Below, piece after piece: positions 1 through 52,976 of a stretch of 52,976 nucleotides of DNA (the stretch's first letter is position 1; every line of letters begins with the position of its first letter). Source of the DNA: a phage; the sequence record PZ049337.1. One strand, given 5' to 3'. A program made the position numbers and the translations under genes. Below the pieces are notes generated by a model, which saw only the letters and a list, made by a program, of their open reading frames with translations, made no database searches and was not told where the DNA came from.

Positions 1-665
1 ATAAGCAATTGATGCAGGAAGAATTTAGGGCCATTACCTTTAACTTCTTTCTTCTTCGACTTGCCATTGTCCTTGATGATTAATTTGAGTTCACCATAAT
101 CTTTAGGGATTACGATTTTCTCACCAATACCCTGGGTTTCACGTTCCCATTGGTAATGTTTGATTACTGGACCAACACCACCGTTCTGCCCGATTTGTCG
201 CAAGTCTTTGTCCAGCGACGCAATCCAGACTTCATCATATGTGCAAGGACCAATACGCTTGAGGCTCTTAATCTCATTACGTTTACCCATTGTTGCTTCG
301 TATTCATGACGAGCGAATACAGCCAGAAGGTCATCTGCTTCCAGACCTTTCATCCACATTCCGTTCCATGCAACCATGAGATGTGCTTTCGCATTCTTAA
401 GGTTTTCTGGACGCCATACGGTATCACGGTTGCCCTTGTAGTCAGGAGCAAAGACATGTCTCATAGTTTCAGACGGGGATACAAAACTCATAATCTCCGT
501 GGCGCCAGAACGCTTGGCAAGGAACTCCATCTTTGAGTCTATGGACATTTGAATCTTGGCGAAGTTTATATCTCCTGGCTCTTTCCCATATTCTTCTGCC
601 GCGCAGTGGGAAAATGCAATCATATCTGCATCAACGAGAAGCAGGACGCGCTTCTTACTTACCAT
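1..665 (-). CDS. 5'-3' exonuclease / flap endonuclease (T7 gp6-like); C-terminus runs off the window start
   Basis: Minus-strand frame open from ATG at 665 to the window edge (absent from ORF track because truncated). Hand translation MVSKKRVLLLVDADMIAFSH...PDYKGNRD...EADDLLA shows FEN/PIN-type acidic motifs. Sits in the replication module. Confidence 0.55.
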   Translation of the reverse strand, partial: MVSKKRVLLLVDADMIAFSHCAAEEYGKEPGDINFAKIQMSIDSKMEFLAKRSGATEIMSFVSPSETMRHVFAPDYKGNRDTVWRPENLKNAKAHLMVAWNGMWMKGLEADDLLAVFARHEYEATMGKRNEIKSLKRIGPCTYDEVWIASLDKDLRQIGQNGGVGPVIKHYQWERETQGIGEKIVIPKDYGELKLIIKDNGKSKKKEVKGNGPKFFLHQLL

Positions 666-6454: not shown

Positions 6455-7105
6455 TTATTCCTGTTTAATGAGTGCCTCCCAGCAAACAGGAAACAACTCT
6501 GACATAATTTTATTAACTTCTTCTGCAAACAAACGTGCCTCATATTGGGCGTGCTCTGTAGAGCGTTGCTTGTACATATTAGCCCAGCCCAGTAAAGAGC
6601 CAGTCCAAATCCATGTAGTCATCATGGATTGTGGCAACACCATTCGGGCTTGCTCTGGAGCAATCCCCAAACCAATTAACGTTTCATACTCTGCAATGCA
6701 AGCCTTGTTGTGGATTTCCATGCGATAGTGAATATCGTCAGCAAAATCCTGTGGCAATGGTTGTGCAGTCTGAGTCATCAACTTTTCAGGACGACCAAAC
6801 ACCACATCAGGTACAAAGCATTCAATTTCGATTGCTTCGCCATCTTTGTAACGACGGCTAACTTCGTTCCAACGAAAGCCCACCTGGTGCTTACCCAGCT
6901 GCCGCGCAATAAAGATTGGTGCTGTACAACGTAGTGTTACATACGCGTGGGCAAAAGGTGTATTGTGCTTATGCTTTGCGAGAAATTCAATCAGCTTCTC
7001 GTCGCGCAATGTCATCTCGTGGGACTCTGCACCATAAGAGGCTCGTGCAGCATTAACAGTTGTGAGGTCGCTGCCCATGTGGTCAACGAGTGTTGCAGTA
7101 ATCAT
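6455..7105 (-). CDS. thyX: flavin-dependent thymidylate synthase ThyX-like
   Basis: 216 aa; MGSDLTTVNAARASY...HNTPFAHAYVTL...APIFIARQLGKHQVGFRWNEVSRRY aligns with the ThyX signature region (from memory), but canonical RHR is KHQ here. Confidence 0.65.
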   Translation of the reverse strand: MITATLVDHMGSDLTTVNAARASYGAESHEMTLRDEKLIEFLAKHKHNTPFAHAYVTLRCTAPIFIARQLGKHQVGFRWNEVSRRYKDGEAIEIECFVPDVVFGRPEKLMTQTAQPLPQDFADDIHYRMEIHNKACIAEYETLIGLGIAPEQARMVLPQSMMTTWIWTGSLLGWANMYKQRSTEHAQYEARLFAEEVNKIMSELFPVCWEALIKQE

Positions 7106-9235: not shown

Positions 9236-10393
9236 AAAATTGGGTGGGTTTTGGTAACGCAGGTTTTCCCGAACTGCGAGGCTTGTAGAATCTGTGAGTC
9301 ATCTACTGTGTTTTGACATAACGTGGGATTGATGGTCCCGACTCACTTCATCTCAGGTACAAGGCACTACTTTGCGAGTGCAAGCAGGTGTTGAACCCAA
9401 GTACCAACAGGCAACCTGATTTAATCTACCTTTGTAGATACCATCGGTTATGAGCAGTTTATTTCCATGCTCAGGGCAACTCACTTTAGGGTGAATTAGG
9501 TTACGCAGTGCAGCTTCGAAGTCGCTGCCACAGGTTTGAGATTCCTGTGTGGAGGGAAATCCAGAGGAGCACTTCCCCAAGGAGTTACGTTTCAAATTGG
9601 CATAGCTTCTCACACTAAGCCAATTGAAGACATTCCAGTGTGCTCGTCCGTCCTCTAGAAATATCCAACTGCATAATTAAGTTTGTACTCTGTCACATCT
9701 CCACGCGCACTGGAAGACTTAAGCCTGCATTGCATCGCAGAATACAAATTAATTATTGCTCCGATTTATTAATCACATCTCGAAGCCACAATGCGCCAAA
9801 TTTGGTTACATGGGATTGGAAGACCACGGAGAGAACTTAAATTTAATTAAGCTGCAACTCGCATTTCAGAATCATTTGCATTTATTTTAAATGAATAAAA
9901 CAGTCGCAATAACTTCAGGCAGTTTAGACCCGTCGTAAGACTCAGAAAACTACTTCAATATGGACTCTGGCATTCAACCAGACTCGACTACTTTTCAAGG
10001 CACTACCCTCTACTTTTTCATCACCCGTACTGGATATACTTTCACTGGTGCCCTTCCGCAAAGATTTCTTAAAGCGTTTCCAGGATGTTTCGCGGTAGTG
10101 AATCGCTACTACTTCCAGGGTCTCCACCAATACTTTCTAGTGAGCACGTCCTTCCAGCTAATTGTCTTCTCTTATCGGAGAAGGGTTCGTCCATTGCACA
10201 TCCATATTGAAATAACTTCAATGAACACTCTTGTCTGGGCCATGAGCTTGGGCATCGGCCTACCTCCCAACTCTAATCACAAGAATGCTCATTGAAGCCC
10301 ACTCACTCTGGAATGGGTTCAAGGCAGCACCGGAAAACTTCCAGTGCATGCCAGATCGATTTAGCTTAGTCTCTCAAGTTTGCCATCGGCAAC

Positions 10394-10732
10394 TTAGAAT
10401 ACCGGAGCTTCTTCAACAGCAGCTTCGGCAGCTTCTTCAACAACTGCGTCAGCAACTTTAGCTTCTTTCGGGGTATCGAACTTAGTACGCTCAACTTCCG
10501 GCTCACCAGCTTCAACCCACGGCAGATAGAATGCCAGGAACTGCTCGACGGTGTTCTTCTGCATGGAGCGAGAACGGTCGATAGCGCCAACGGTGTTCAG
10601 GTACGCTTCGGCAGCTTTCTCAATTTTAGCACCGTTTTCCAGTTTGAAGTCATGTGCATTACACTCTGCTTCGGTCAGGAACAGGGAACCATCGTTAGCT
10701 TCGTACTGAGTTACGGTTACAATCTTAGCCAT
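10394..10732 (-). CDS. hypothetical acidic protein with C-terminal ...EEAPVF tail
   Basis: Track ORF 10394..10816; I prefer ATG at 10732 (MAKIVTV...) with AGG Shine-Dalgarno, because the recurring 17-nt motif lies in the upstream extension. Confidence 0.5.
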   Translation of the reverse strand: MAKIVTVTQYEANDGSLFLTEAECNAHDFKLENGAKIEKAAEAYLNTVGAIDRSRSMQKNTVEQFLAFYLPWVEAGEPEVERTKFDTPKEAKVADAVVEEAAEAAVEEAPVF

Positions 10733-10810
10733 TTGTATATACCTTATATTGAATAGTTTTTGCACGCCACGGTGACGCGACTTAGATAAAATTAAAGAGC
10801 CTTTCTCTTT

Positions 10811-10827
10811 CCACATCCAATTAATGT
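10811..10827 (-). promoter_or_regulatory. copy of recurring 17-nt motif (minus strand ACATTAATTGGATGTGG)
   Basis: About 80 nt upstream of ATG 10732. Confidence 0.35.
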
Positions 10828-10856
10828 GTCAGGACTGCTCTGATTTAACAAACAAC

Positions 10857-11531
10857 TCAATACATATTGAATCGTTCGATTGTTTTGATTACCAAATCCT
10901 TTGTCTCAGCGACAGTGAGTTCAGTGATGATTGATTCGTCATAACCCTCAATCTGGATTGCTACAAAACGCCCAACACCTGTTACGGTAAGTCGGTTGGT
11001 TCTGTCACGAACAACTACACCAGCTTCTTGCGCGACTGCTCGCAACAATTTCCAGCGTAAAGTTCGGTTTGGTACAGTAAAGCCCTTTGTCAAGAACAAC
11101 TCTTTCATGAGTTCTCCAAGGCAAACAGCTTCAATGTTTTTTCCTCTTCCAACTAATTCTTGCAACAGGCACAGCGTCAACATTTCTAAATTGTTGAAGT
11201 GACCAGCGCGCTCCAAATTAAAGAACTCTGGAGGAACAGTTGAACGAGATTTAACAGCTTGCTTATATGCACGTTCTTCTTCCTGTGCAGCAAGCATTAG
11301 CATCTCTGGCTTAATGTATTTCATAGCAGAGAAGCCAGCGCGTGTGGCTTTAATTATGCGACAAGCCTCTTTCATCTTGTAGCGTTGCCACTCACCGCGC
11401 TTCGATTCTGGATTAAAATGGACCCACATAATGATAACATCTTCCTTGGCAAGATAGACGGCATCATTATCATTGAGCCATTGCTTGCACGTTGATAGTG
11501 CAATCTCTTTGTCATCATCATGATAAGACAT
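10857..11531 (-). CDS. hypothetical protein (about 224 aa)
   Basis: Track ORF 10857..11588; ATG at 11531 (MSYHDDD...) has AGG Shine-Dalgarno and sits 1 nt after the upstream stop. Confidence 0.45.
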   Translation of the reverse strand: MSYHDDDKEIALSTCKQWLNDNDAVYLAKEDVIIMWVHFNPESKRGEWQRYKMKEACRIIKATRAGFSAMKYIKPEMLMLAAQEEERAYKQAVKSRSTVPPEFFNLERAGHFNNLEMLTLCLLQELVGRGKNIEAVCLGELMKELFLTKGFTVPNRTLRWKLLRAVAQEAGVVVRDRTNRLTVTGVGRFVAIQIEGYDESIITELTVAETKDLVIKTIERFNMY

Positions 11532-21041: not shown

Positions 21042-22982
21042 TTATTGACAGAAGTAGTAAGCGTGTTCGCTCATCAGAAGCTCTTCAGTTACGATATTCT
21101 CATGATACATCTGAATGCCACCGAGTTGCTTAGACAGATTCTCGAATTGATTGTTGGTTACGAAGATTTCAACATATGCTGCACGAATAACTTCCATCAT
21201 ACGTGGAGCATCAGCTAAGCAGCAACGGAAACAGTCATGGATTGAAGTGAAACCACGAAGACCAGCTTCTTTAGCCTTAACTGCAACAGTACGAGCAACC
21301 AACGCGTCAATACCTTGAATGTAGTTAACAACGAAGGTACGCTTGAACTCTTCTTTAGTTGGGTTGGACTCACGAATGGTCCAAGGCTTATTCTCCTGAA
21401 TCTGACCAAAGATAACACGAGTTTGAGAGTCAACACGAATGCTGAATGCCTCACAGATTTCACGAGATGGGAAGCAAGGCTTCATTACAACCTGACCATC
21501 AGTGTGCTTATAGGTGATGTACTCTTTGTTGAGTTCAACACAACGAGCAAATGCAGCATCAGCAGCTTTCTCAATGAACATGTTAATCTTAGCACCCAAT
21601 GCGTTATGGATTGCTTCTACACACAGTTCAGCAAATGCCTCAGCTTTCTCCATAGGAATCTGAAGAGATGCAGTCATGTAGGAGATAAAGTCAGAAGAAC
21701 CAGTTAATGCTGCTTTACCACCACCATATTGGATAGCCATGTATGGAGTTTTGATAAACTTACGACCAGCTTTCGGATTCAAGAATTCATCCATAATTTC
21801 AGGAGATGGTTTCATTGAAGAACGGTCTAATAACTTTAACAGTTCACGAAGAGATAACTGGTATGGGTCAGATGCTTTAGTCTCAGAATCAACCAGACCT
21901 GTTGCACGAGCCATCTCCATGTTACCAGCAATGAATGCCAGATATTGAGTACCAGAACATTTAGCATCTAAGCCAAAGCCTACACGAGAATCACACTCAC
22001 CTGTAGTCTCAAACTTGAACCAATCCAGAGCCAGACGAACATAAGTGAATGGCTTAGAAGGACGTTCAGCTTTAGGCATGTTCATCATGCGAGCAAGTGA
22101 ACCAGCTGGATTCTGAGCAACATAGGTCAAACGTTTAGCACTGCACCATTCACCACCAGAAATATCTTCCAGCTCAGCCATGAACATGTTGTATGCAATG
22201 GTAGTAGAACCATCTTCGTTAAACTTCTTAACGATGTTCTCAACATTGTGAGAATACAGGCAACGAGCAAAGTCAGATGATTGTGGGTTAGGACCAGCAC
22301 ATGCTACATGATACAGGCGACCACGGTTATCAGCAAAGTAGTCAGAATAGAGTGTATCCTGAGTCATCATTGCTACAGCATTGTTCCAAACATGGAGTTC
22401 AGTCTGGATTGCTTCTGGCATCTGCAAACCACCGTAGGTACGTTGTTCAATCATGGACTGAATGATGCGAACCATTTCAGTCTCCACATGGTACTCAGTA
22501 TCTTGCAGGAATTCGATTGCAGCTTTCAGAGTCTTGGATGGCTTAACTTTGCCACCTTTAACGAAAGGCTTGCGACGAGATTCAGATGTAACACGCTCAG
22601 TGAATGGCACTGCTGTGTCTTTGGTTGTAACCAGCTCAACCCATGTATCAGTTTGTTGGAATGACTTGTCTTCGTTCATGGTGATGAAGCCAAAGTGTTT
22701 AGCTAAACCAATGAGGTTGATAGCTGGGTCAACATAGTGCATTGATTTCAAGTCGTTGTTATAGCGGTTGGCATCAGCAATAGAAGAAGAAGCCAGTTCA
22801 ACCATTGCAATGGCTGGGACAACATCATCACGAGTGAATGACGTCATCATCTTGAAGATTGCAAGAGCAGCAATAGCACAGGTCTGAGGCTGCATATAGT
22901 TCTGTTTCTCTTTGGCACGATATACCAGAGCCGTGATAGCAGGGACAACGGATTTGATAGTTTGAGTGGTGATAGTAGTCAT
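21042..22982 (-). CDS. single-subunit DNA-directed RNA polymerase (T7-like), N-terminally short (646 aa)
   Basis: DNRGRLYHV...NPQ matches T7 DWRGRVYAV...NPQ; CSGTQY versus T7 CSGIQH; motif B RKFIKTPYMAIQYG (R-x3-K-x3-M-x3-YG); motif C IHDCF; GGAG Shine-Dalgarno before ATG 22982. T7 comparisons are from memory. Confidence 0.8.
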   Translation of the reverse strand: MTTITTQTIKSVVPAITALVYRAKEKQNYMQPQTCAIAALAIFKMMTSFTRDDVVPAIAMVELASSSIADANRYNNDLKSMHYVDPAINLIGLAKHFGFITMNEDKSFQQTDTWVELVTTKDTAVPFTERVTSESRRKPFVKGGKVKPSKTLKAAIEFLQDTEYHVETEMVRIIQSMIEQRTYGGLQMPEAIQTELHVWNNAVAMMTQDTLYSDYFADNRGRLYHVACAGPNPQSSDFARCLYSHNVENIVKKFNEDGSTTIAYNMFMAELEDISGGEWCSAKRLTYVAQNPAGSLARMMNMPKAERPSKPFTYVRLALDWFKFETTGECDSRVGFGLDAKCSGTQYLAFIAGNMEMARATGLVDSETKASDPYQLSLRELLKLLDRSSMKPSPEIMDEFLNPKAGRKFIKTPYMAIQYGGGKAALTGSSDFISYMTASLQIPMEKAEAFAELCVEAIHNALGAKINMFIEKAADAAFARCVELNKEYITYKHTDGQVVMKPCFPSREICEAFSIRVDSQTRVIFGQIQENKPWTIRESNPTKEEFKRTFVVNYIQGIDALVARTVAVKAKEAGLRGFTSIHDCFRCCLADAPRMMEVIRAAYVEIFVTNNQFENLSKQLGGIQMYHENIVTEELLMSEHAYYFCQ

Positions 22983-23049
22983 TTGTAAGTCTCCAAGATT
23001 GTGTATGATTTAACTGAAACGGATTATAATAGCGTAGCCATTACACAAT

Positions 23050-23066
23050 TCACTTCCAACTAATAT
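23050..23066 (-). promoter_or_regulatory. copy of recurring 17-nt motif (minus strand ATATTAGTTGGAAGTGA)
   Basis: 68 nt upstream of the RNA polymerase ATG; a TATAAT-like hexamer lies about 25 nt downstream of it. Confidence 0.35.
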
Positions 23067-23170
23067 CACAAACCTGTGCCATTGTTAGCACAGCACGGAG
23101 ACTTTGACCTTGACTCATAAGCGAAGCGCCTAACTTGGTGTTATCATTAAGCCGATAGGCTGTAGAAAAA

Positions 23171-23229
23171 GTTGGGGTAGGGACCGTATTTTAAGTCCGA
23201 TAGGACGTTGGGCTTCCCCTCCCCGCGAC
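23171..23229 (-). terminator. possible intrinsic terminator after the late/nrdB transcription unit
   Basis: Minus strand GGGGAGGGG...CCCTACCCC stem (one mismatch, one G-U) followed by AACTTTTTC; loop is long, so uncertain. Confidence 0.3.
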
Positions 23230-23242
23230 CTCAAAAATAAAA

Positions 23243-23470
23243 ATTAATATTGCCACAATTCGAGTCTCATTAATATTGAAACAATTTGAGTCTCATTAAT
23301 TTTGTAGCAATATTAAAATAAAAAAAAATTATAAAAAAAAAATTATTTCATAGTCAGACAACTGTTCGAAAAAATTTCGGCGAGATACAGCTGACCGACC
23401 ATGTACCATTTGGTTTTGAACTTTACGCATTCCTAATATTACTCTTAATATTGTAGCAATATTGGGAATA
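23243..23470. repeat. AT-rich repeat region (24-nt direct repeat, A-tracts, TGTAGCAATATT boxes)
   Basis: CACAATTCGAGTCTCATTAATATT (23254-23277) and AACAATTTGAGTCTCATTAATTTT (23280-23303); poly-A runs 23318-23345; TGTAGCAATATT at 23298 and 23452, related to the 20040-20312 array. Confidence 0.5.
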
Positions 23471-23552
23471 AATAAATATTTAATTTACTTGTTTTATTCT
23501 AGCTCAAAGAGAAACGACGCTAACGCATCGAATCTCTTCTCACATATAATCG

Positions 23553-24671
23553 TTAAAGCTCAAATCCGCCCAGAGCATTGGTGTCAACTTCGGAGTCAAT
23601 CTGCCCGACAAGGTACGAACTAATCTCCGTTTCTTGTGGAGCAACCTGTACAGCATCCGAGTTCAGCCATGCGTTAATCCAAGGAATCGGGTTAGTTGCA
23701 CCTTTGAATGGGGCATCTAATCCAACTGCTTGCATACGAATATTCGTAATATATTCCACATATCCGCACAGAATTTGCTTGTTTAAGCCAATCATGGAGC
23801 CATCTTTGAACAAATAATCGGCCCAATCTTTCTCTTGTTGGGCAGCATCTTCGAACAATTTCTGGCATTCTTCACGACATTCTTGAGCAATTTCTCCCAT
23901 TTCTGGGTCATCTTTACCACTCGCAAGAATATTCAACATGTGCTGAGTTCCGGTCAAATGGAGTGCTTCATCTCGTGCAATCAGTCGAATAATCTTGGCA
24001 TTTCCTTCCATTAACTTGCGTTCAGCGAAGGCAAATGAGCAAGCAAAACTAACATAAAAGCGGATTGCTTCTAGTGCATTGATAGACATGAGGCATAAAT
24101 AGAGCTTCTTCTTCAACTCACGCAGACTAATTTCGTGACCAGCATGGTTCCCTTCTCCGAACAACTGCCATAATGCAGTGAGTTGTTGAAGTTCGTCATA
24201 ATACTGGGAGATGCCAATTGCTCGTGCTTTGATATGTTCGTTAGTTACGATTTCATCAAAGATAATGCTTGGGTCTGTAACGATGTTTCGAATAATGTGG
24301 GTGTAAGAACGTGAATGGATAGTCTCAGAGAAAGACCAAGTTTCAATCCAAGTTTCAAGCTCAGGAATGCTCACGATTGGAAGCAAAACTGTGTTAGGTC
24401 CACGTCCCTGAATGGAGTCCAGAAGGATTTGATAGCGCAAATTACTGGTGAAAATGTGCTGCTCATTTGGTGGGAGCTTCTGGTAATCAATACGGTCTTG
24501 TGAAACATCTACCTCCTCCGGTCGCCAGAAGAATGACAATTGTTTCTCAATCAACTTCTCGAATATGCCATACTTCTGTTGGTCATAGCGAGCAACGTTG
24601 ACGTTCTGACCAAAGAACATTGGTTCTAATAGTTGGTTATTCTTGGTTTGTGAAAAGGTAGTGTAAGACAT
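23553..24671 (-). CDS. nrdB: ribonucleotide reductase class Ia small subunit
   Basis: 372 aa; N-terminus [34 protein letters not shown]... closely resembles E. coli NrdB as I recall it; [17 protein letters not shown] (radical Tyr) and RDEALH iron ligands present. Confidence 0.9.
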
Positions 24672-24673
24672 TA

Positions 24674-25234
24674 TTATTTATTTCCTAAATACTTATAAAA
24701 TTTATGTCCACCACAGGCTCCTCTTCCAACAACTCTTTTGAAATTACATTTCTCTGTAGCTGTGCAGAAGTGGGTGGCATCGGTTACATCTGGAGCATCC
24801 AACAATGCGAAGTTAATTGCTACATTCATGGTGTCCCAAACCTGTTTTGATTCAGTCTTCCAATTTGTTTTAACTATATTCTTCCATTGAGCATTCTTCT
24901 TCTTTGCTTCTCTTGTCCAAGCAAACTGGTTGCGTTGATATACTACATCGCAAACGGTGTTAGCGAATGGCTTCCCGAATTTGATTCGATTACGGACGAC
25001 ATTAGCTACCAGAATCTTTCCATGCTTGCTTTCTCCACGAGCCTCAAACCAAATTACTTTGGCATAGCATTCTATATCTTTGCGTTGAGAAATAGATAGT
25101 TTCGGATTTCCATTTAAATAAGATTGACTTGCAAATTCTGTAATAGTGGCGTTCACTGCCCCAGCCGAAGCTGGGACATTTGCGTGAAACAGACTCACCA
25201 ACAGAAATGCAAGAACTTGTGCTGAGGGCATCAT
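24674..25234 (-). CDS. secreted SleB-like cell-wall hydrolase (candidate endolysin)
   Basis: N-terminal signal/SAR-like [26 protein letters not shown]; [24 protein letters not shown] resembles Hydrolase_2/SleB; adjacent to holin. Confidence 0.55.
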
Positions 25235-35398: not shown

Positions 35399-38300
35399 TT
35401 ATCTACGTTCCATTGCACCATTACCCATGTTGATTGTTTGGGTAACAGTTTGACCGTTCGGAGTTGACACGGTTGCAGACGCTTGCTTGTTGTTCACAGT
35501 AGCTTTGACTTCAACGTTAACTACAGTAGCCTGTGTCTGACCATAAGATAGTCCATTTCTGGTGAAGCCGGTTGCACCTTCTGCAATAGAATCGCCCTGA
35601 GAAGCCCATTCGCGGTACTTCTTGACGCGGTTCTGTGCCTGTAGAGGAACAGCATTGAGCCAGTCGGTTCCGTGTTTGTTGATAGCATCATCAACAGTTC
35701 CAGCACCATCCGTATACGCCGCCATAGCCTTCTCAGCGTCACCATTATAACGCTTGAGCATTGCATCATAGTAGTCACGACCAACGCGAGCACGTTCTTC
35801 CAGTGAGTTATCACGGGCAGGTTTAACGCCGAATCCTGGGTCACGGGAAGTTGAATCAAGAACCTGCATACGACCTTTGGCACCAGTCGGAGATGTAACC
35901 ACCGAACCATCTGCGTTCAAATCGCGGTTCCCTGACTCTTCTCCTGCGATAAAGTCGTAAACATTACGTGCTGCATCGGCTGCACCGTTGGAGGTCATAC
36001 GCATCACTCTGGCTGCGTCACCGCCTGCCTCAATAAAGGTGCTGCCGTATGAGATTGCAGCTTGCGGAACAGCGTAACCAGGCAATACCCCAGCACGCTC
36101 CGTCTGCGCAATTCCTAGCTGTGCAACGCCTTCGGCATAGTTTGAGTCAGCCCCACGCTGAACGTTCGCCTCAGCCTCGCCCATGCTGTATTCTGTGCGG
36201 TCATAGGCACGAGCCATACCGTCCAGTCCAGCCATTTGCATAGCACCAGCGATACGCGCCTGACTCCAGCCTCGTTCCTGACCACGTTCGCGCATTACCC
36301 GCGCTAAGGCTACAGGGTCGCCCTGTGCCTGCCTAATGTCGCCAATGGTGATAAGACCACGGGTTCCCTGAACAATGCTCACAGCGCCGCTGGGGTCGCC
36401 ATTTAGGAGGGTGTTATAGGCACTATGTGTGGTTTGATTCAGTCGGCTGGCTTGCTGGGAATTAAGTCCTAACATCTCCATGCCCTGAGTCATGGAAGAG
36501 TATTCGTTAGGGTTATTTACACCAGCATCTAACGAGTTTCCGTAGAAGTCATTCAGACCTTCCAGAGCTTCGTTGCCAATTTGGGTAGCACCAATAGCCA
36601 TACCAGCGACACGACCCCACGGAGTCATCATCATGGCATTCATTGCACCAGTGGATAAAGAGCCAATACTGCCGCCAGCTACGCCAGCAGCTAATGCCCC
36701 ACCCATACGACCGAAGTCATCACCAAAACTGCCACCAGCTTGCCACCCACGACGTCCACCACCGCCACCAGAACCACCACCGCTAATACCATAGCTACTA
36801 GCATCAATGTTGTCCCAGAAGCCGCCTGAGCGCCCACCGTCGCCACCACCGAAATCTGCATCCTGACCACGGAGCTTGTTCTCTTCCTGTGCTGCGAGGA
36901 TACCTTTCTTAACTGACACAGCCATCAGGTCATTGCCAGTTGTGCTATCAGCGCCCACAGCAGAGGCTGTAGCAGCACCAATTCCAGCATCGGTACGGTT
37001 TCTTAAGAACGGGTCATCATCAGTGCCAGCAGCAGCACTGTATCTTGCCATTCCACGCTTGCCAGCCGTGTATCCTTCGCCTTCCCTGTGGTCACGAGTC
37101 TGGTATCCCCAGATGCCACCACCAGACATAACTTCACGAGTTGCATTAATAAGGTCTTTGCCTTCAAGGTCAGAGCTTTCCATAAACTCACGACCAGCAT
37201 TCATGCGTGCTTGTGAAGATGCAATCTTATTCTTGTTACGTTCGAACCACGTTGGGTCAGCATCAACCCACTGGCTACGAGATTCTTCGCCAACAGTTTG
37301 AGTAAATAGGGTACGACTACGACCACTCAAATGCATACCAAGTTGCATCTGGTCCATGTAGTTCGGAGTAGATTCCAAATCTTTAAAGTCGTTTGGAGCC
37401 TTATGTTCCCACAGAGCATCATCACCAATTAATCCATCTGGCGAGTACATCATGCCAGGATAGTTATCGTTAGTGATTGCACCAGTTTCTGTTATCTCAA
37501 CCCCATACTTCTCGCCAACTCTCGGCCTGGCCCATGCCTCTAATCTGTGACCACGCTCAAAGTTCTCACGCGCTCGTGGAGAATCCTTTCTTACTGTGAG
37601 GCCAATCTTCTCGCCCATTGTATGTATTGGACTATTATTGGTTGCGGGGTTGTGGCCCAGATAATCACCAATAGTAGAGCCAGTAATATCGTACTGCTTA
37701 CGAAAATCAAGCCACTCCTGCGTACCTTGTTCGAGCGCATTGTGGTATTTAACCGAACTAGGCTGTCCAGCACCAGCACTATCGAGATTTGCAATAGCAA
37801 TAGCTTCTCTTCTATCCCTTGCAGAATTCCAACTTGTCGGTTCATTCAGATTTGCCGTAAACTCTCTGGATGTACTAAGTTCAGTAGGTCCAGTATTTCT
37901 TAAACGTTCAGCAGGGTCGAAAGTTCTGCTTACTTCTGCTTCATTATATTGGTGGGCATTCTCAAGTACACCACGAATAGATGCACCAGAGTAACGAGGG
38001 TCATCACCAATATCTTTCTTGAGGTTGTCATAACCAGAACGAGCATCTGCAAGGTCTATATAACGAGATGCAGAATCAAGAATTAAATCTCGGTCAGAAG
38101 ATTGAGTGCGATAAGCATTCATCCCTCGTTCTGAGCCACCAGCATATACCTGAGCAGCAGATTTAACTACGCCAGATACATCTTGATATAAAGATTTACT
38201 TGCATCAGACCAACCTGGAGAGCCAGATAGTGATGCAGATAAAGAGTATTCAGCCTTAATGCCAGAACCCATAGAGCCTAGAGGTAGGCCAGATGCGTTA

Positions 38301-39088
38301 AGAGGTTGGCGAGGATGTTGAATATCACCAACAATAGACTCGGAACCAAGTTGAGGAAGAGAATCCATGTATGAAACTCTTGGCCCCGACTTATTACCTA
38401 CATTCATTGCAGATACGGCAGCAACTTCACGGAAGTTTTGCGGCAATTCTGATTCTAAACGTTTGGCTACACGATAAACATCTCGTGCATAGCGGTCTGG
38501 GTCGTCATATTGTTGACGGTCAACATACATATGAGCTAGGTAGCCCATAGATTTGGCAATATCTCCACGGTTTGTGGAATATTCACCCATAATATCGCCA
38601 GTGTAATGCCCAGGAAGTTCCGGCATTATATCTTGATGACCTGCCAGCGTATCACGCATGTACGCATTAAGCATTCCCCAATGGCCTTCTGGCTTGTTTG
38701 TGTTTGCTTTAGGCATGTGCATCCACACATCATCGGTGGATACACCTAATTTCTCCATGTAGGCATGAACAGCTTCTACATGGTGACTTGGACCGTTCAT
38801 TGCAGCATGGAATGTTTCAGTCAGCCCAGCACCAGAAATCATCTGTGCAATGTGAGCTGAATCTGAAATCATGTCGGAAGTACCATAAGAGATGCCATCA
38901 TCTTCTGTGTAGGTTTCTTCCATAAGCTGTGAATTTGTTTCCATCCAACCAGAGGCAGCACTTGATTCAAGTTGCTGTGCCATATCTCGTTTGCGCATAC
39001 CTGGATTGAATGACAGACCATATTGAGCGCCTAAGCCAATCAATTCGGCTTCGGACATTCTCATCAAATCTTTTATGTTATTAGCCAT
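35399..39088 (-). CDS. tail tape measure protein with lytic transglycosylase (SLT) domain
   Basis: 1229 aa; long Gly-rich tract; SLT-like AGEESGNRDLNADGSVVTSPTGAKGRMQV and following YYDAMLKRYNG...AYTDGAG. Confidence 0.75.
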   Translation of the reverse strand: MANNIKDLMRMSEAELIGLGAQYGLSFNPGMRKRDMAQQLESSAASGWMETNSQLMEETYTEDDGISYGTSDMISDSAHIAQMISGAGLTETFHAAMNGPSHHVEAVHAYMEKLGVSTDDVWMHMPKANTNKPEGHWGMLNAYMRDTLAGHQDIMPELPGHYTGDIMGEYSTNRGDIAKSMGYLAHMYVDRQQYDDPDRYARDVYRVAKRLESELPQNFREVAAVSAMNVGNKSGPRVSYMDSLPQLGSESIVGDIQHPRQPLNASGLPLGSMGSGIKAEYSLSASLSGSPGWSDASKSLYQDVSGVVKSAAQVYAGGSERGMNAYRTQSSDRDLILDSASRYIDLADARSGYDNLKKDIGDDPRYSGASIRGVLENAHQYNEAEVSRTFDPAERLRNTGPTELSTSREFTANLNEPTSWNSARDRREAIAIANLDSAGAGQPSSVKYHNALEQGTQEWLDFRKQYDITGSTIGDYLGHNPATNNSPIHTMGEKIGLTVRKDSPRARENFERGHRLEAWARPRVGEKYGVEITETGAITNDNYPGMMYSPDGLIGDDALWEHKAPNDFKDLESTPNYMDQMQLGMHLSGRSRTLFTQTVGEESRSQWVDADPTWFERNKNKIASSQARMNAGREFMESSDLEGKDLINATREVMSGGGIWGYQTRDHREGEGYTAGKRGMARYSAAAGTDDDPFLRNRTDAGIGAATASAVGADSTTGNDLMAVSVKKGILAAQEENKLRGQDADFGGGDGGRSGGFWDNIDASSYGISGGGSGGGGGRRGWQAGGSFGDDFGRMGGALAAGVAGGSIGSLSTGAMNAMMMTPWGRVAGMAIGATQIGNEALEGLNDFYGNSLDAGVNNPNEYSSMTQGMEMLGLNSQQASRLNQTTHSAYNTLLNGDPSGAVSIVQGTRGLITIGDIRQAQGDPVALARVMRERGQERGWSQARIAGAMQMAGLDGMARAYDRTEYSMGEAEANVQRGADSNYAEGVAQLGIAQTERAGVLPGYAVPQAAISYGSTFIEAGGDAARVMRMTSNGAADAARNVYDFIAGEESGNRDLNADGSVVTSPTGAKGRMQVLDSTSRDPGFGVKPARDNSLEERARVGRDYYDAMLKRYNGDAEKAMAAYTDGAGTVDDAINKHGTDWLNAVPLQAQNRVKKYREWASQGDSIAEGATGFTRNGLSYGQTQATVVNVEVKATVNNKQASATVSTPNGQTVTQTINMGNGAMERR

Positions 39089-50260: not shown

Positions 50261-50713
50261 CTAAACTCGTCCAGTTGAACCAAGCCCGCCTTCACCACGA
50301 ACAGTGGAATTTAAGTGGTCAACTTCAACGAAATGGTGTTGAGTAGCTTTACTAACTTGCACCTGACAAACACGTTCGCCTGGTTGAATAACAAAGGCTG
50401 TGTCCGAGTCGTTGTGCAGCTTAACCATAAGATTACCGCGATAGTCGGAATCCAGAATGCCTGTGCAGTTTGCAAGGCGAATACCAGACTTAAAGCCGTG
50501 ACCAGAACGGCTATGCACTTTGAGTTCGTATCCAATTGGTACTTCGAACTGGAGGCCAGTATCGACAACAACAGAAGAGCCGGGATTGATAACAACAGTG
50601 GTATCGGATACAGTACAAACATCAGCAGCAGCAGCGCCAGCTGTAGCGTACACAGGTAATTTCGCATTAGGATGTACTCGTTTAACTGCAACAACTTGGG
50701 TAATACAAGACAT
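50261..50713 (-). CDS. dut: dUTP diphosphatase
   Basis: All dUTPase motifs: YATAGAAAADV, HSRSGHG, GILDSDYRGNLMV, IQPGERVCQV, RGEGGLGSTGR. Confidence 0.85.
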   Translation of the reverse strand: MSCITQVVAVKRVHPNAKLPVYATAGAAAADVCTVSDTTVVINPGSSVVVDTGLQFEVPIGYELKVHSRSGHGFKSGIRLANCTGILDSDYRGNLMVKLHNDSDTAFVIQPGERVCQVQVSKATQHHFVEVDHLNSTVRGEGGLGSTGRV

Positions 50714-52615: not shown

Positions 52616-52976
52616 TTATTTCTGGAGGTACTCTTCTTGAGTGAGGATACGATTCTCTTTAAGGTCAAAGTATTCGTTAATGTTCTTGTAATGCCACAAG
52701 CGAACACAATTTCCCTTTTCAACTTGATGGTGCATGTAAACAAGACGACCCACTTTGAGCAGTTCCTGTTCCCAACCATCTCCGAAGCGCATAATAAATG
52801 CACCAATAACTTTCTTCAAACCTTCTGCATAGGAGGTTGTGCCGTCCAGCATCTCGAATGAAGCAACTGCACCAACGCCATCACGACGGAAATAAGTTTC
52901 TCCGGCTTTGGCACCAGTTTTATAAATCTTTTCTTCAAGAACTCCGCAACCCATAACGTTATCCGTTGAGTCGCCA
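52616..52976 (-). CDS. hypothetical protein, probably N-terminally truncated by the window end
   Basis: Track ORF 52616..52954; frame stays open upstream of ATG 52954 to the window edge. Confidence 0.35.
   Translation of the reverse strand, partial: GDSTDNVMGCGVLEEKIYKTGAKAGETYFRRDGVGAVASFEMLDGTTSYAEGLKKVIGAFIMRFGDGWEQELLKVGRLVYMHHQVEKGNCVRLWHYKNINEYFDLKENRILTQEEYLQK

Follow-up and report, generated by a model that had tools for sequence, protein, structure and literature searches.

In the present study, we analyzed the phage DNA of record PZ049337.1 over its whole length (52,976 nucleotides, hereafter the window), and focused on an open reading frame (ORF) of 372 codons plus stop, from ATG to TAA, which was predicted to encode NrdB, the small subunit (beta) of a class Ia ribonucleotide reductase (RNR). 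The ORF lies exactly where the original prediction had placed it, and the features recognized within it are as follows.

23553..24671, minus strand: nrdB, class Ia ribonucleotide reductase small subunit (beta); ORF, NF006576, and PF00268
23958..24419, minus strand: span of the di-iron ligands and the radical tyrosine, by residue mapping on the global alignment; phage D85, E116, H119, E201, E235, and H238 correspond to E. coli D84, E115, H118, E204, E238, and H241
24303-24305, minus strand: codon of the radical tyrosine, phage Y123, corresponding to E. coli Y122, by residue mapping
24135..24158, minus strand: surface loop GEGNHAGH, shortened by 4 residues relative to E. coli, from alignments
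23556..23657, minus strand: C-terminal beta-tail, phage residues 339-372, corresponding to E. coli D342-L375, from the alignment

Regarding the identity of the product, its assignment to the class Ia NrdB family is indicated by profile scores above the respective cut-offs together with the presence of the cofactor and radical-transfer residues. The NCBIfam equivalog NF006576 ("class Ia ribonucleoside-diphosphate reductase subunit beta") matched residues 1-372 on profile positions 1-376 with 717.8 bits, the cut-off being 346 bits, and Pfam PF00268 gave 170.8 bits against a cut-off of 33.6. The top match among solved structures was E. coli NrdB (E = 1.3e-204), which is represented by many entries, such as PDB 1MXR, 6W4X, and 7AI8, and a global alignment of the two proteins contained 299 identical residues out of 372 (80.4%) and a single 4-residue gap. 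The close likeness to enterobacterial NrdB claimed in the original prediction was thus borne out by a proper alignment, and the low similarity to the host protein that would have spoken against it was not found. The six di-iron ligands, the radical tyrosine, and the radical-transfer residues W48, E52, D237, E350, and Y356 (E. coli numbering) are all identical in the phage and E. coli proteins, and the radical tyrosine, iron ligands, and docking tail are accordingly intact on residue mapping, as had been anticipated. The phage gene differs from its E. coli counterpart in having neither nrdA nor yfaE adjacent to it.

The window is the genome of a phiEcoM-GJ1-like myophage belonging to Carltongylesvirus (Chaseviridae, Cleopatravirinae), a group in which 52-56-kb myophage genomes have one coding strand, encode a single-subunit RNA polymerase, and are collinear with phiEcoM-GJ1; all large ORFs of the window are on the minus strand, and the placement in the genus was also based on the taxonomy lines of its relatives. 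The 8-kb neighborhood of nrdB was 88-91% identical at the DNA level to TH24, MLP1, Ecp_YSF, and flopper, with the best match at about 90%. These relatives, together with PYps23T and others, are myophages with genomes of 51.5–55.8 kb, recorded from E. coli, Shigella, and Yersinia, and these hosts agree with the enterobacterial host suggested beforehand. E. coli, Shigella, and Yersinia all have class Ia NrdA. The same gene at the same position, with nothing of substance different, is gp75 of phiEcoM-GJ1 (YP_001595470.1), and further orthologues are ORF79 of ST32, gp26 of flopper, and the nrdB genes of MLP1, Mangalitsa, and the Yersinia phages PYps23T and PYps3T. The NrdB of the window was 99.5% identical to those of MLP1 and PYps3T, 98.4% to that of a 52,975-bp viral record (L003), and 92% to that of flopper. 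In a phage collection, 46 records held an NrdB at least 90% identical to that of the window, none fell between 80% and 90%, and the remainder reached at most about 72%.

The orphan nrdB of this group is already known and was rediscovered here. For phiEcoM-GJ1, an nrdB without a partner has been on record since its annotation in 2008, and it entered a survey table in 2013; the paper on ST32 gives gp75 of phiEcoM-GJ1 as the beta subunit of ribonucleotide reductase, 372 aa long, and as the last ORF of both genomes (PMC6266442), and Dwivedi et al. (2013) stated that "two phages only contain nrdB" and listed phiEcoM-Gj1 with nrdB alone in their Table S1 (PMC3653736). The window is a further member of the phiEcoM-GJ1 group. 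As a separate observation, the DNA of "Staphylococcus phage Pel53" (PP952070.1, host Staphylococcus hyicus) is approximately 89% identical to this group of E. coli phages and its NrdB is 99% identical to that of the window; given the enterobacterial-type NrdB and the set of tail fibers, the Gram-positive host looks like a mislabel or contamination.

The reading frame of nrdB was intact in every clade member examined. Pairwise Nei-Gojobori comparisons among eight members gave dN/dS values of 0.011–0.084 at dS values of 0.13 to 0.86, which points to very strong purifying selection, as expected for an essential enzyme. Within the clade, NrdB varies mostly in a small number of surface segments. 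The trimmed hairpin loop, the most striking of these, is located around E. coli residues 171–185 and occurs in two alleles, one of 372 aa (loop 4 residues shorter) in the window, GJ1, MLP1, and the PYps phages, and the other of 366 aa (loop 10 residues shorter) in flopper, Mangalitsa, and 2KOFFS. The two groups are about 92% identical and represent nested deletions in one surface hairpin loop, the length of which is constant among the cellular NrdB variants printed.

No gene for the large subunit accompanies nrdB. A six-frame tblastn search of the 52,976-base genome with E. coli NrdA gave a best E value of 0.21, a tblastn search with YfaE gave a best E value of 1.7, and none of the ORFs of at least 400 aa showed a Pfam match to an RNR large-subunit domain. 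The canonical nrdA-nrdB(-yfaE) operon, arranged as nrdA-nrdB-yfaE in E. coli, is thus not present in the phage genome. The ten largest ORFs include those for a family-A DNA polymerase, primase-helicase, single-subunit RNA polymerase, tail/virion protein of 1,229 aa, terminase, sheath, portal, and DUF2213 protein as well as two ORFs without a Pfam match, which correspond to annotated tail fiber proteins in relatives, and no ORF big enough for a catalytic subunit of class I, II, or III is left over. Another class of RNR or a cryptic large subunit was therefore rejected on the basis of the domain search among ORFs of at least 400 aa. The RNA polymerase, which had been noted as a large enzyme nearby, is of the single-subunit type (21042..22982, PF00940).

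When the last 2,000 bases of the window were joined to its first 1,271 bases, they aligned without a break to the interior of Mangalitsa, a complete phage genome that served as the reference for this comparison, with 100% coverage and 96.2% identity, and the joined ends also aligned unbroken to other relatives. Therefore, the window is a whole genome, which is complete, circularly permuted, and arbitrarily linearized. A search of the rest of the genome for nrdA, as originally proposed, yielded nothing, and an nrdA gene located just outside the window was rejected, since the two ends of the window join up. In the complete genome of flopper, nrdB is present and nrdA was not found by annotation or tblastn. 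The lack of a large subunit asserted in the original prediction consequently holds for the complete genome, by tblastn, the ORF survey, and end-joining, and both this genome and flopper have the small subunit of an RNR without the large one. A gene for a 5'-3' exonuclease is apparently cut by the ends of the window (1-662 and 52616-52976, minus strand) and is annotated in Mangalitsa where the joined ends align; the split gene fits an arbitrarily opened circular assembly and not physical genome ends.

To place the orphan state among viruses, 80 loci on viral contigs that carry a relative of the phage NrdB were fetched, and nrdA was located directly upstream of nrdB in 74 of the 77 that had enough upstream sequence to be judged. 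The exceptions were two records of the phiEcoM-GJ1 group (L003 and L004) and a 77,727-bp metagenomic contig (L007, IMGVR_UViG_3300045988_117772). The latter encodes an enterobacterial-type NrdB (9992-11134) that is 78% identical to E. coli NrdB and 72% to that of the window, in an N4-like context with a polymerase A fragment, PriCT primase, AAA_24 protein, and a 2,771-aa ORF without a Pfam match. No nrdA was found within 10 kb on either side, a range that covers 21 kb of the contig, and L007 is a possible second orphan nrdB, with nrdA possibly elsewhere on the contig. Two other IMG/VR contigs, L005 and L006, carry ordinary bacterial nrdA-nrdB(-yfaE) operons, with the NrdB of L005 being 99.7% identical to that of E. 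coli, and are probably host DNA flanking prophage calls and not phage RNR genes. A 494-aa NrdB (P0004) considered as a phage fusion was rejected, as it is bacterial and its gene belongs to an ordinary nrdA-nrdB-ferredoxin operon. The 203 plasmid matches in E. coli assemblies were likewise set aside; the best rows were chromosome-sized records or large replicons and most others showed less than 60% identity.

Since an upstream nrdA is the usual viral state, the gene may be considered a decaying remnant of an nrdA-nrdB operon, or its partner may be hidden in the genome. This explanation is largely refuted and we regard it as scarcely credible, because the frame has been kept intact under strong purifying selection throughout the clade members examined, the endolysin gene is only 2 nt away and leaves no room for a lost neighbor, and the ORFs of at least 400 aa belong to other families or lack an RNR domain, with no similarity to NrdA in six frames.

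The neighborhood of nrdB contains the following features.

24674..25234, minus strand: endolysin gene; ORF, PF07486
23515..23530, minus strand: terminator-like hairpin, CGATGCGTTAGCGTCG followed by a T-rich run, from a consensus scan
22983..23552, no strand: non-coding gap of 570 bp between nrdB and the RNA polymerase gene, from the sequence

The endolysin gene is located immediately upstream of nrdB, with its stop 2 nt from the nrdB start, and a Shine-Dalgarno-like motif, AGGAAAT, precedes this start. The order endolysin-nrdB is the same in MLP1, PYps23T, PYps3T, 2KOFFS, and flopper, and the common order in Carltongylesvirus-like phages is tail fiber, holin, endolysin, nrdB, gap, and RNA polymerase, such that nrdB reads as the last gene of a tail-fiber/holin/endolysin unit. 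A scan limited to sigma-70-type sites did not reveal a promoter of its own for nrdB, with 6 sigma-70-like sites against 6.2 expected from shuffles. The terminator-like hairpin is located approximately 20 nt past the nrdB stop codon and is a consensus match only, from a scan that found 3 sites in the region against 1.9 expected. The position after the lysis genes, the 2-nt spacer, and the lack of a convincing promoter of its own suggest late expression, and nrdB probably belongs to a late transcription unit; its position is typical of an added accessory gene.

The gap contains AT-rich direct and inverted repeats at about 23240-23485, and repeat_regions are annotated in the equivalent gap of flopper. 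The repeat block comprises a tandem 26-mer, ATTAATATTG(C/A)(C/A)ACAATT(C/T)GAGTCTC, and copies of TTGTAGCAATATTAA in both orientations, and it may be an early promoter/operator region or the boundary of a terminal repeat. A direct terminal repeat of 2,339 bp has been shown experimentally in PYps23T (PMC8762354), which, from the coordinates of the record, would start in the equivalent gap. If the terminal repeat starts in the gap, nrdB would be the unique gene closest to the right end of the virion DNA.

The origin of the gene was examined next to its cellular and phage homologs. The nrdB DNA was only about 71% identical to nrdB in all 5,426 complete E. coli genomes searched, and synonymous sites of the clade members were saturated relative to E. 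coli nrdB (pS 0.80–0.86). GC3 was 0.43 in the phage gene versus 0.65 in E. coli nrdB, and the codon usage of phage nrdB correlated with that of other phage genes (r = 0.68) and little with that of E. coli nrdAB (r = 0.16). Recent capture from E. coli was therefore rejected, on the DNA identity of 71%, pS values above 0.75, GC3, and the phage-type codon usage. In a neighbor-joining tree, the phage NrdBs formed one clade with 100% bootstrap support, which branched outside the sampled Enterobacterales plus Pasteurellaceae (78%) and inside Vibrio; this tree is distance-based with limited sampling, and the long phage branch could be drawn to the base, so that it argues solely against a recent E. 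coli origin. The top cellular matches were all 76–80% identical to the phage NrdB irrespective of genus. Thus, the description of the gene as host-like is appropriate at the level of the bacterial order, but not in the sense of a recent E. coli capture, and the phylogeny that had been recommended as a check places the phage clade outside the sampled Enterobacterales.

In Erwinia phage Y2, a member of the same family and a different genus, no similarity to NrdB or NrdA was detected in the whole genome. The order in Y2 is holin, endolysin, and the terminal repeat with RNA polymerase, with two tiny ORFs at the position of nrdB. Since nrdB is missing from the equivalent position in Y2, the gene is an insertion after the lysis genes that is specific to the E. 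coli/Shigella/Yersinia lineage.

The surface that docks NrdA was compared with that of E. coli NrdB. According to the cryo-EM structure of the active E. coli complex at 2.6 Å, beta touches alpha through 44 direct contacts, 26 of which come from the tail D342–L375 (PMC11551348). The tail of the phage protein is identical to that of E. coli at 26 of 34 positions and includes two residues of the radical-transfer path, E350 and Y356. Only two of its positions vary across eight members of the clade, and it stays within the range of sequences seen in cellular tails, retaining the L-x-x-F-x-L anchors. Using the list of NrdA-contact residues in Table S10 of the structural study (PMC11551348), 29 of 32 direct contact residues were identical to those of E. 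coli, versus 80% identity overall; by region, these were 11/12 in the tail, 13/13 in the rest of the alpha–beta interface, and 5/7 in interfaces involving β′ or α′. Among water-bridged contact residues, 13 of 14 were identical. The higher identity at contacts than at non-contacts is a trend only (Fisher P = 0.09). The three changed direct contacts are D368N, which is within cellular variation, N131T, and N343A. Based on these comparisons, the phage protein appears to possess the C-terminal tail and surface required for NrdA, and should dock on enterobacterial NrdA much like host NrdB. Accordingly, among the readings considered, pairing of the orphan subunit with host NrdA, as originally suggested, appears to be the best supported by the sequence data.

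Many phages possess a complete class Ia RNR, including the T4-like NrdA-NrdB and most viral nrdB loci. These belong to the same protein family and are used by phages to boost the supply of dNTPs, but differ in that their own nrdA is directly upstream and in that their NrdB is only about 50-60% identical to that of the window. The tail in nrdA-carrying phages reads Y[VI]IGGTKQDV..., versus a different stretch of 12 residues in the NrdB of the window. This comparison suggests a tail of the host type and carries little weight because it is confounded by the lower overall identity of these proteins.

The tail also bears on the possibility of a function independent of NrdA, such as that of a ferritin-like di-iron oxidase or binding to another host or phage protein. 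The genome has no partner gene, and the protein has a weak, sub-threshold similarity to models of the R2-like ligand-binding oxidases, which is expected for any R2. We nevertheless consider such a function to be highly unlikely; the score for NF006576 is twice its cut-off, whereas the R2lox models gave 24 bits against a cut-off of 194, and the flexible tail, which serves only alpha docking and radical transfer, hardly changes across the clade.

Two further genes of the phage genome contribute to the supply of dNTPs.

6455..7105, minus strand: ThyX-type thymidylate synthase; PF02511, E = 1.4e-41
50261..50713, minus strand: dUTPase; PF00692, E = 2.9e-23

Taken together, we consider it probable that the phage encodes a catalytically competent beta2, which joins host NrdA and, in infection, adds to or takes the place of host NrdB. 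The points counted for this pairing are the intact gene, its strong purifying selection, the retention of catalytic and contact residues, the lack of a phage large subunit, and the occurrence of the gene in 46 records. In this model, phage NrdB would form a beta2 dimer after infection, possibly also mixed dimers with host NrdB, assemble the di-iron tyrosyl-radical cofactor with host factors, and dock via its conserved C-terminal tail on the alpha2 of host NrdA. The hybrid alpha2-beta2 may then reduce ribonucleoside diphosphates, such that the radical-supplying half of RNR would be raised or maintained during the takeover of host gene expression, and the hybrid enzyme, together with phage ThyX and dUTPase, would feed phage DNA synthesis. 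Cofactor assembly, pairing with host NrdA, activity, the time of expression, and a fitness benefit are what we infer for the phage protein.

A precedent for this strategy is found in eukaryotic viruses. Most chordopoxviruses encode R2 only, and the R2 of vaccinia virus (F4) forms functional hybrid complexes with cellular R1 via C-terminal residues, a pairing that efficient replication requires (PMC2900304). In both cases, the virus carries only the small, radical-generating subunit; however, vaccinia F4 is a eukaryotic-type R2 of a eukaryotic virus, and the hybrid and its importance have been demonstrated experimentally for F4, whereas they are predicted for the phage. The relationship is an analogy of strategy and not close kinship, and by this analogy phage NrdB most likely works as the hybrid between vaccinia R2 and host R1 does. 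With respect to phages, Dwivedi et al. (2013) noted that they often carry only rate-limiting steps, and stated that the functionality of incomplete phage RNR sets is unknown (PMC3653736). A full-text literature search found no paper on a phage nrdB with host NrdA.

Several points speak against the preferred reading of a hybrid with host NrdA. N131T and N343A, at positions invariant in 116 cellular NrdBs, are present in all phage copies, and docking could be weaker or altered. Late expression would be an odd time for an enzyme of dNTP supply. The RNR subunits of phage T4 and E. coli are not known to cross-complement, and hybrid activity therefore cannot be assumed from homology alone.

The vaccinia system also provides the basis for a contrary idea, namely, that NrdB is a dominant-negative decoy in which a radical-dead beta occupies host NrdA and stops host dNTP synthesis. 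Such a mechanism is physically conceivable, given that in vaccinia a viral R2 without a working radical still binds R1 and acts as a dominant negative (PMC2900304). On the other hand, the iron ligands, radical tyrosine, and radical-transfer residues, which a decoy would not need, are kept in the phage protein at dN/dS below 0.1, and the phage itself needs dNTPs and carries ThyX and dUTPase; we accordingly regard a decoy as extremely improbable.

The changes that set the phage clade apart raise the question of regulation. Eight sites, K78R, T81I, V93T, N131T, D139E, I161Q, Q306G, and N343A, are invariant in 116 cellular NrdBs and fixed for another residue in all ten phage sequences, and these substitutions, which include the contacts N131T and N343A, together with the shortened hairpin loop, distinguish the phage protein from E. 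coli NrdB. They may indicate regulatory re-tuning, in which phage beta2 with host NrdA escapes feedback control and overproduces dNTPs; the hybrid might form the dATP-inhibited alpha4beta4 ring more poorly, or the gating of tail binding by substrate and effector might be relaxed. N131 and N343 make direct side-chain contacts to alpha, Q306G adjoins the contact residue Y307 and is nine residues from I297, and the surface hairpin has lost 4 or 10 residues. I297 is the key beta residue of the small inhibitory interface (about 525 Å2), and fills a pocket in the dATP-inhibited alpha4beta4 ring (PMC11447812). However, I297, S295, M296, and N300 are unchanged in the phage protein, with R292K, D302Q, and Q306G differing nearby; we found no published list of the beta residues of the inhibited ring beyond I297 and no paper that names Q306, D302, or R292 as contacts within it. 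The phage-specific changes were not significantly enriched at NrdA contacts (2/8, P = 0.15), and the substitutions could represent neutral drift on a long branch. Re-tuning is therefore an unlikely explanation in our estimation. If true, it would mean that the host catalytic subunit is hijacked for unrestrained dNTP production, and would represent the first demonstrated phage-host hybrid ribonucleotide reductase.

The class Ia RNR of E. coli serves as the reference for work on radical enzymology and on allosteric control. A natural small subunit with 80% identity may be utilized as a probe of the beta residues involved in docking, radical transfer, and dATP inhibition, the more so as the phage NrdB has been selected over tens of per cent of synonymous divergence, presumably to work with the host large subunit. 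The phage also represents a clean bacterial example of a virus with one half of a two-component host enzyme, in parallel to the R2-only poxviruses, and the R2-only state suggests that, during infection, the half that bears the radical is the one that is limiting or labile.

In addition to nrdB, the 1,229-aa virion/tail protein (35399-39088, minus strand) contains a YqaJ-like recombinase/exonuclease domain at residues 458-590 (E = 7e-11) and a lytic transglycosylase SLT domain at residues 1064-1140; a nuclease-type domain within a structural tail protein is unusual.
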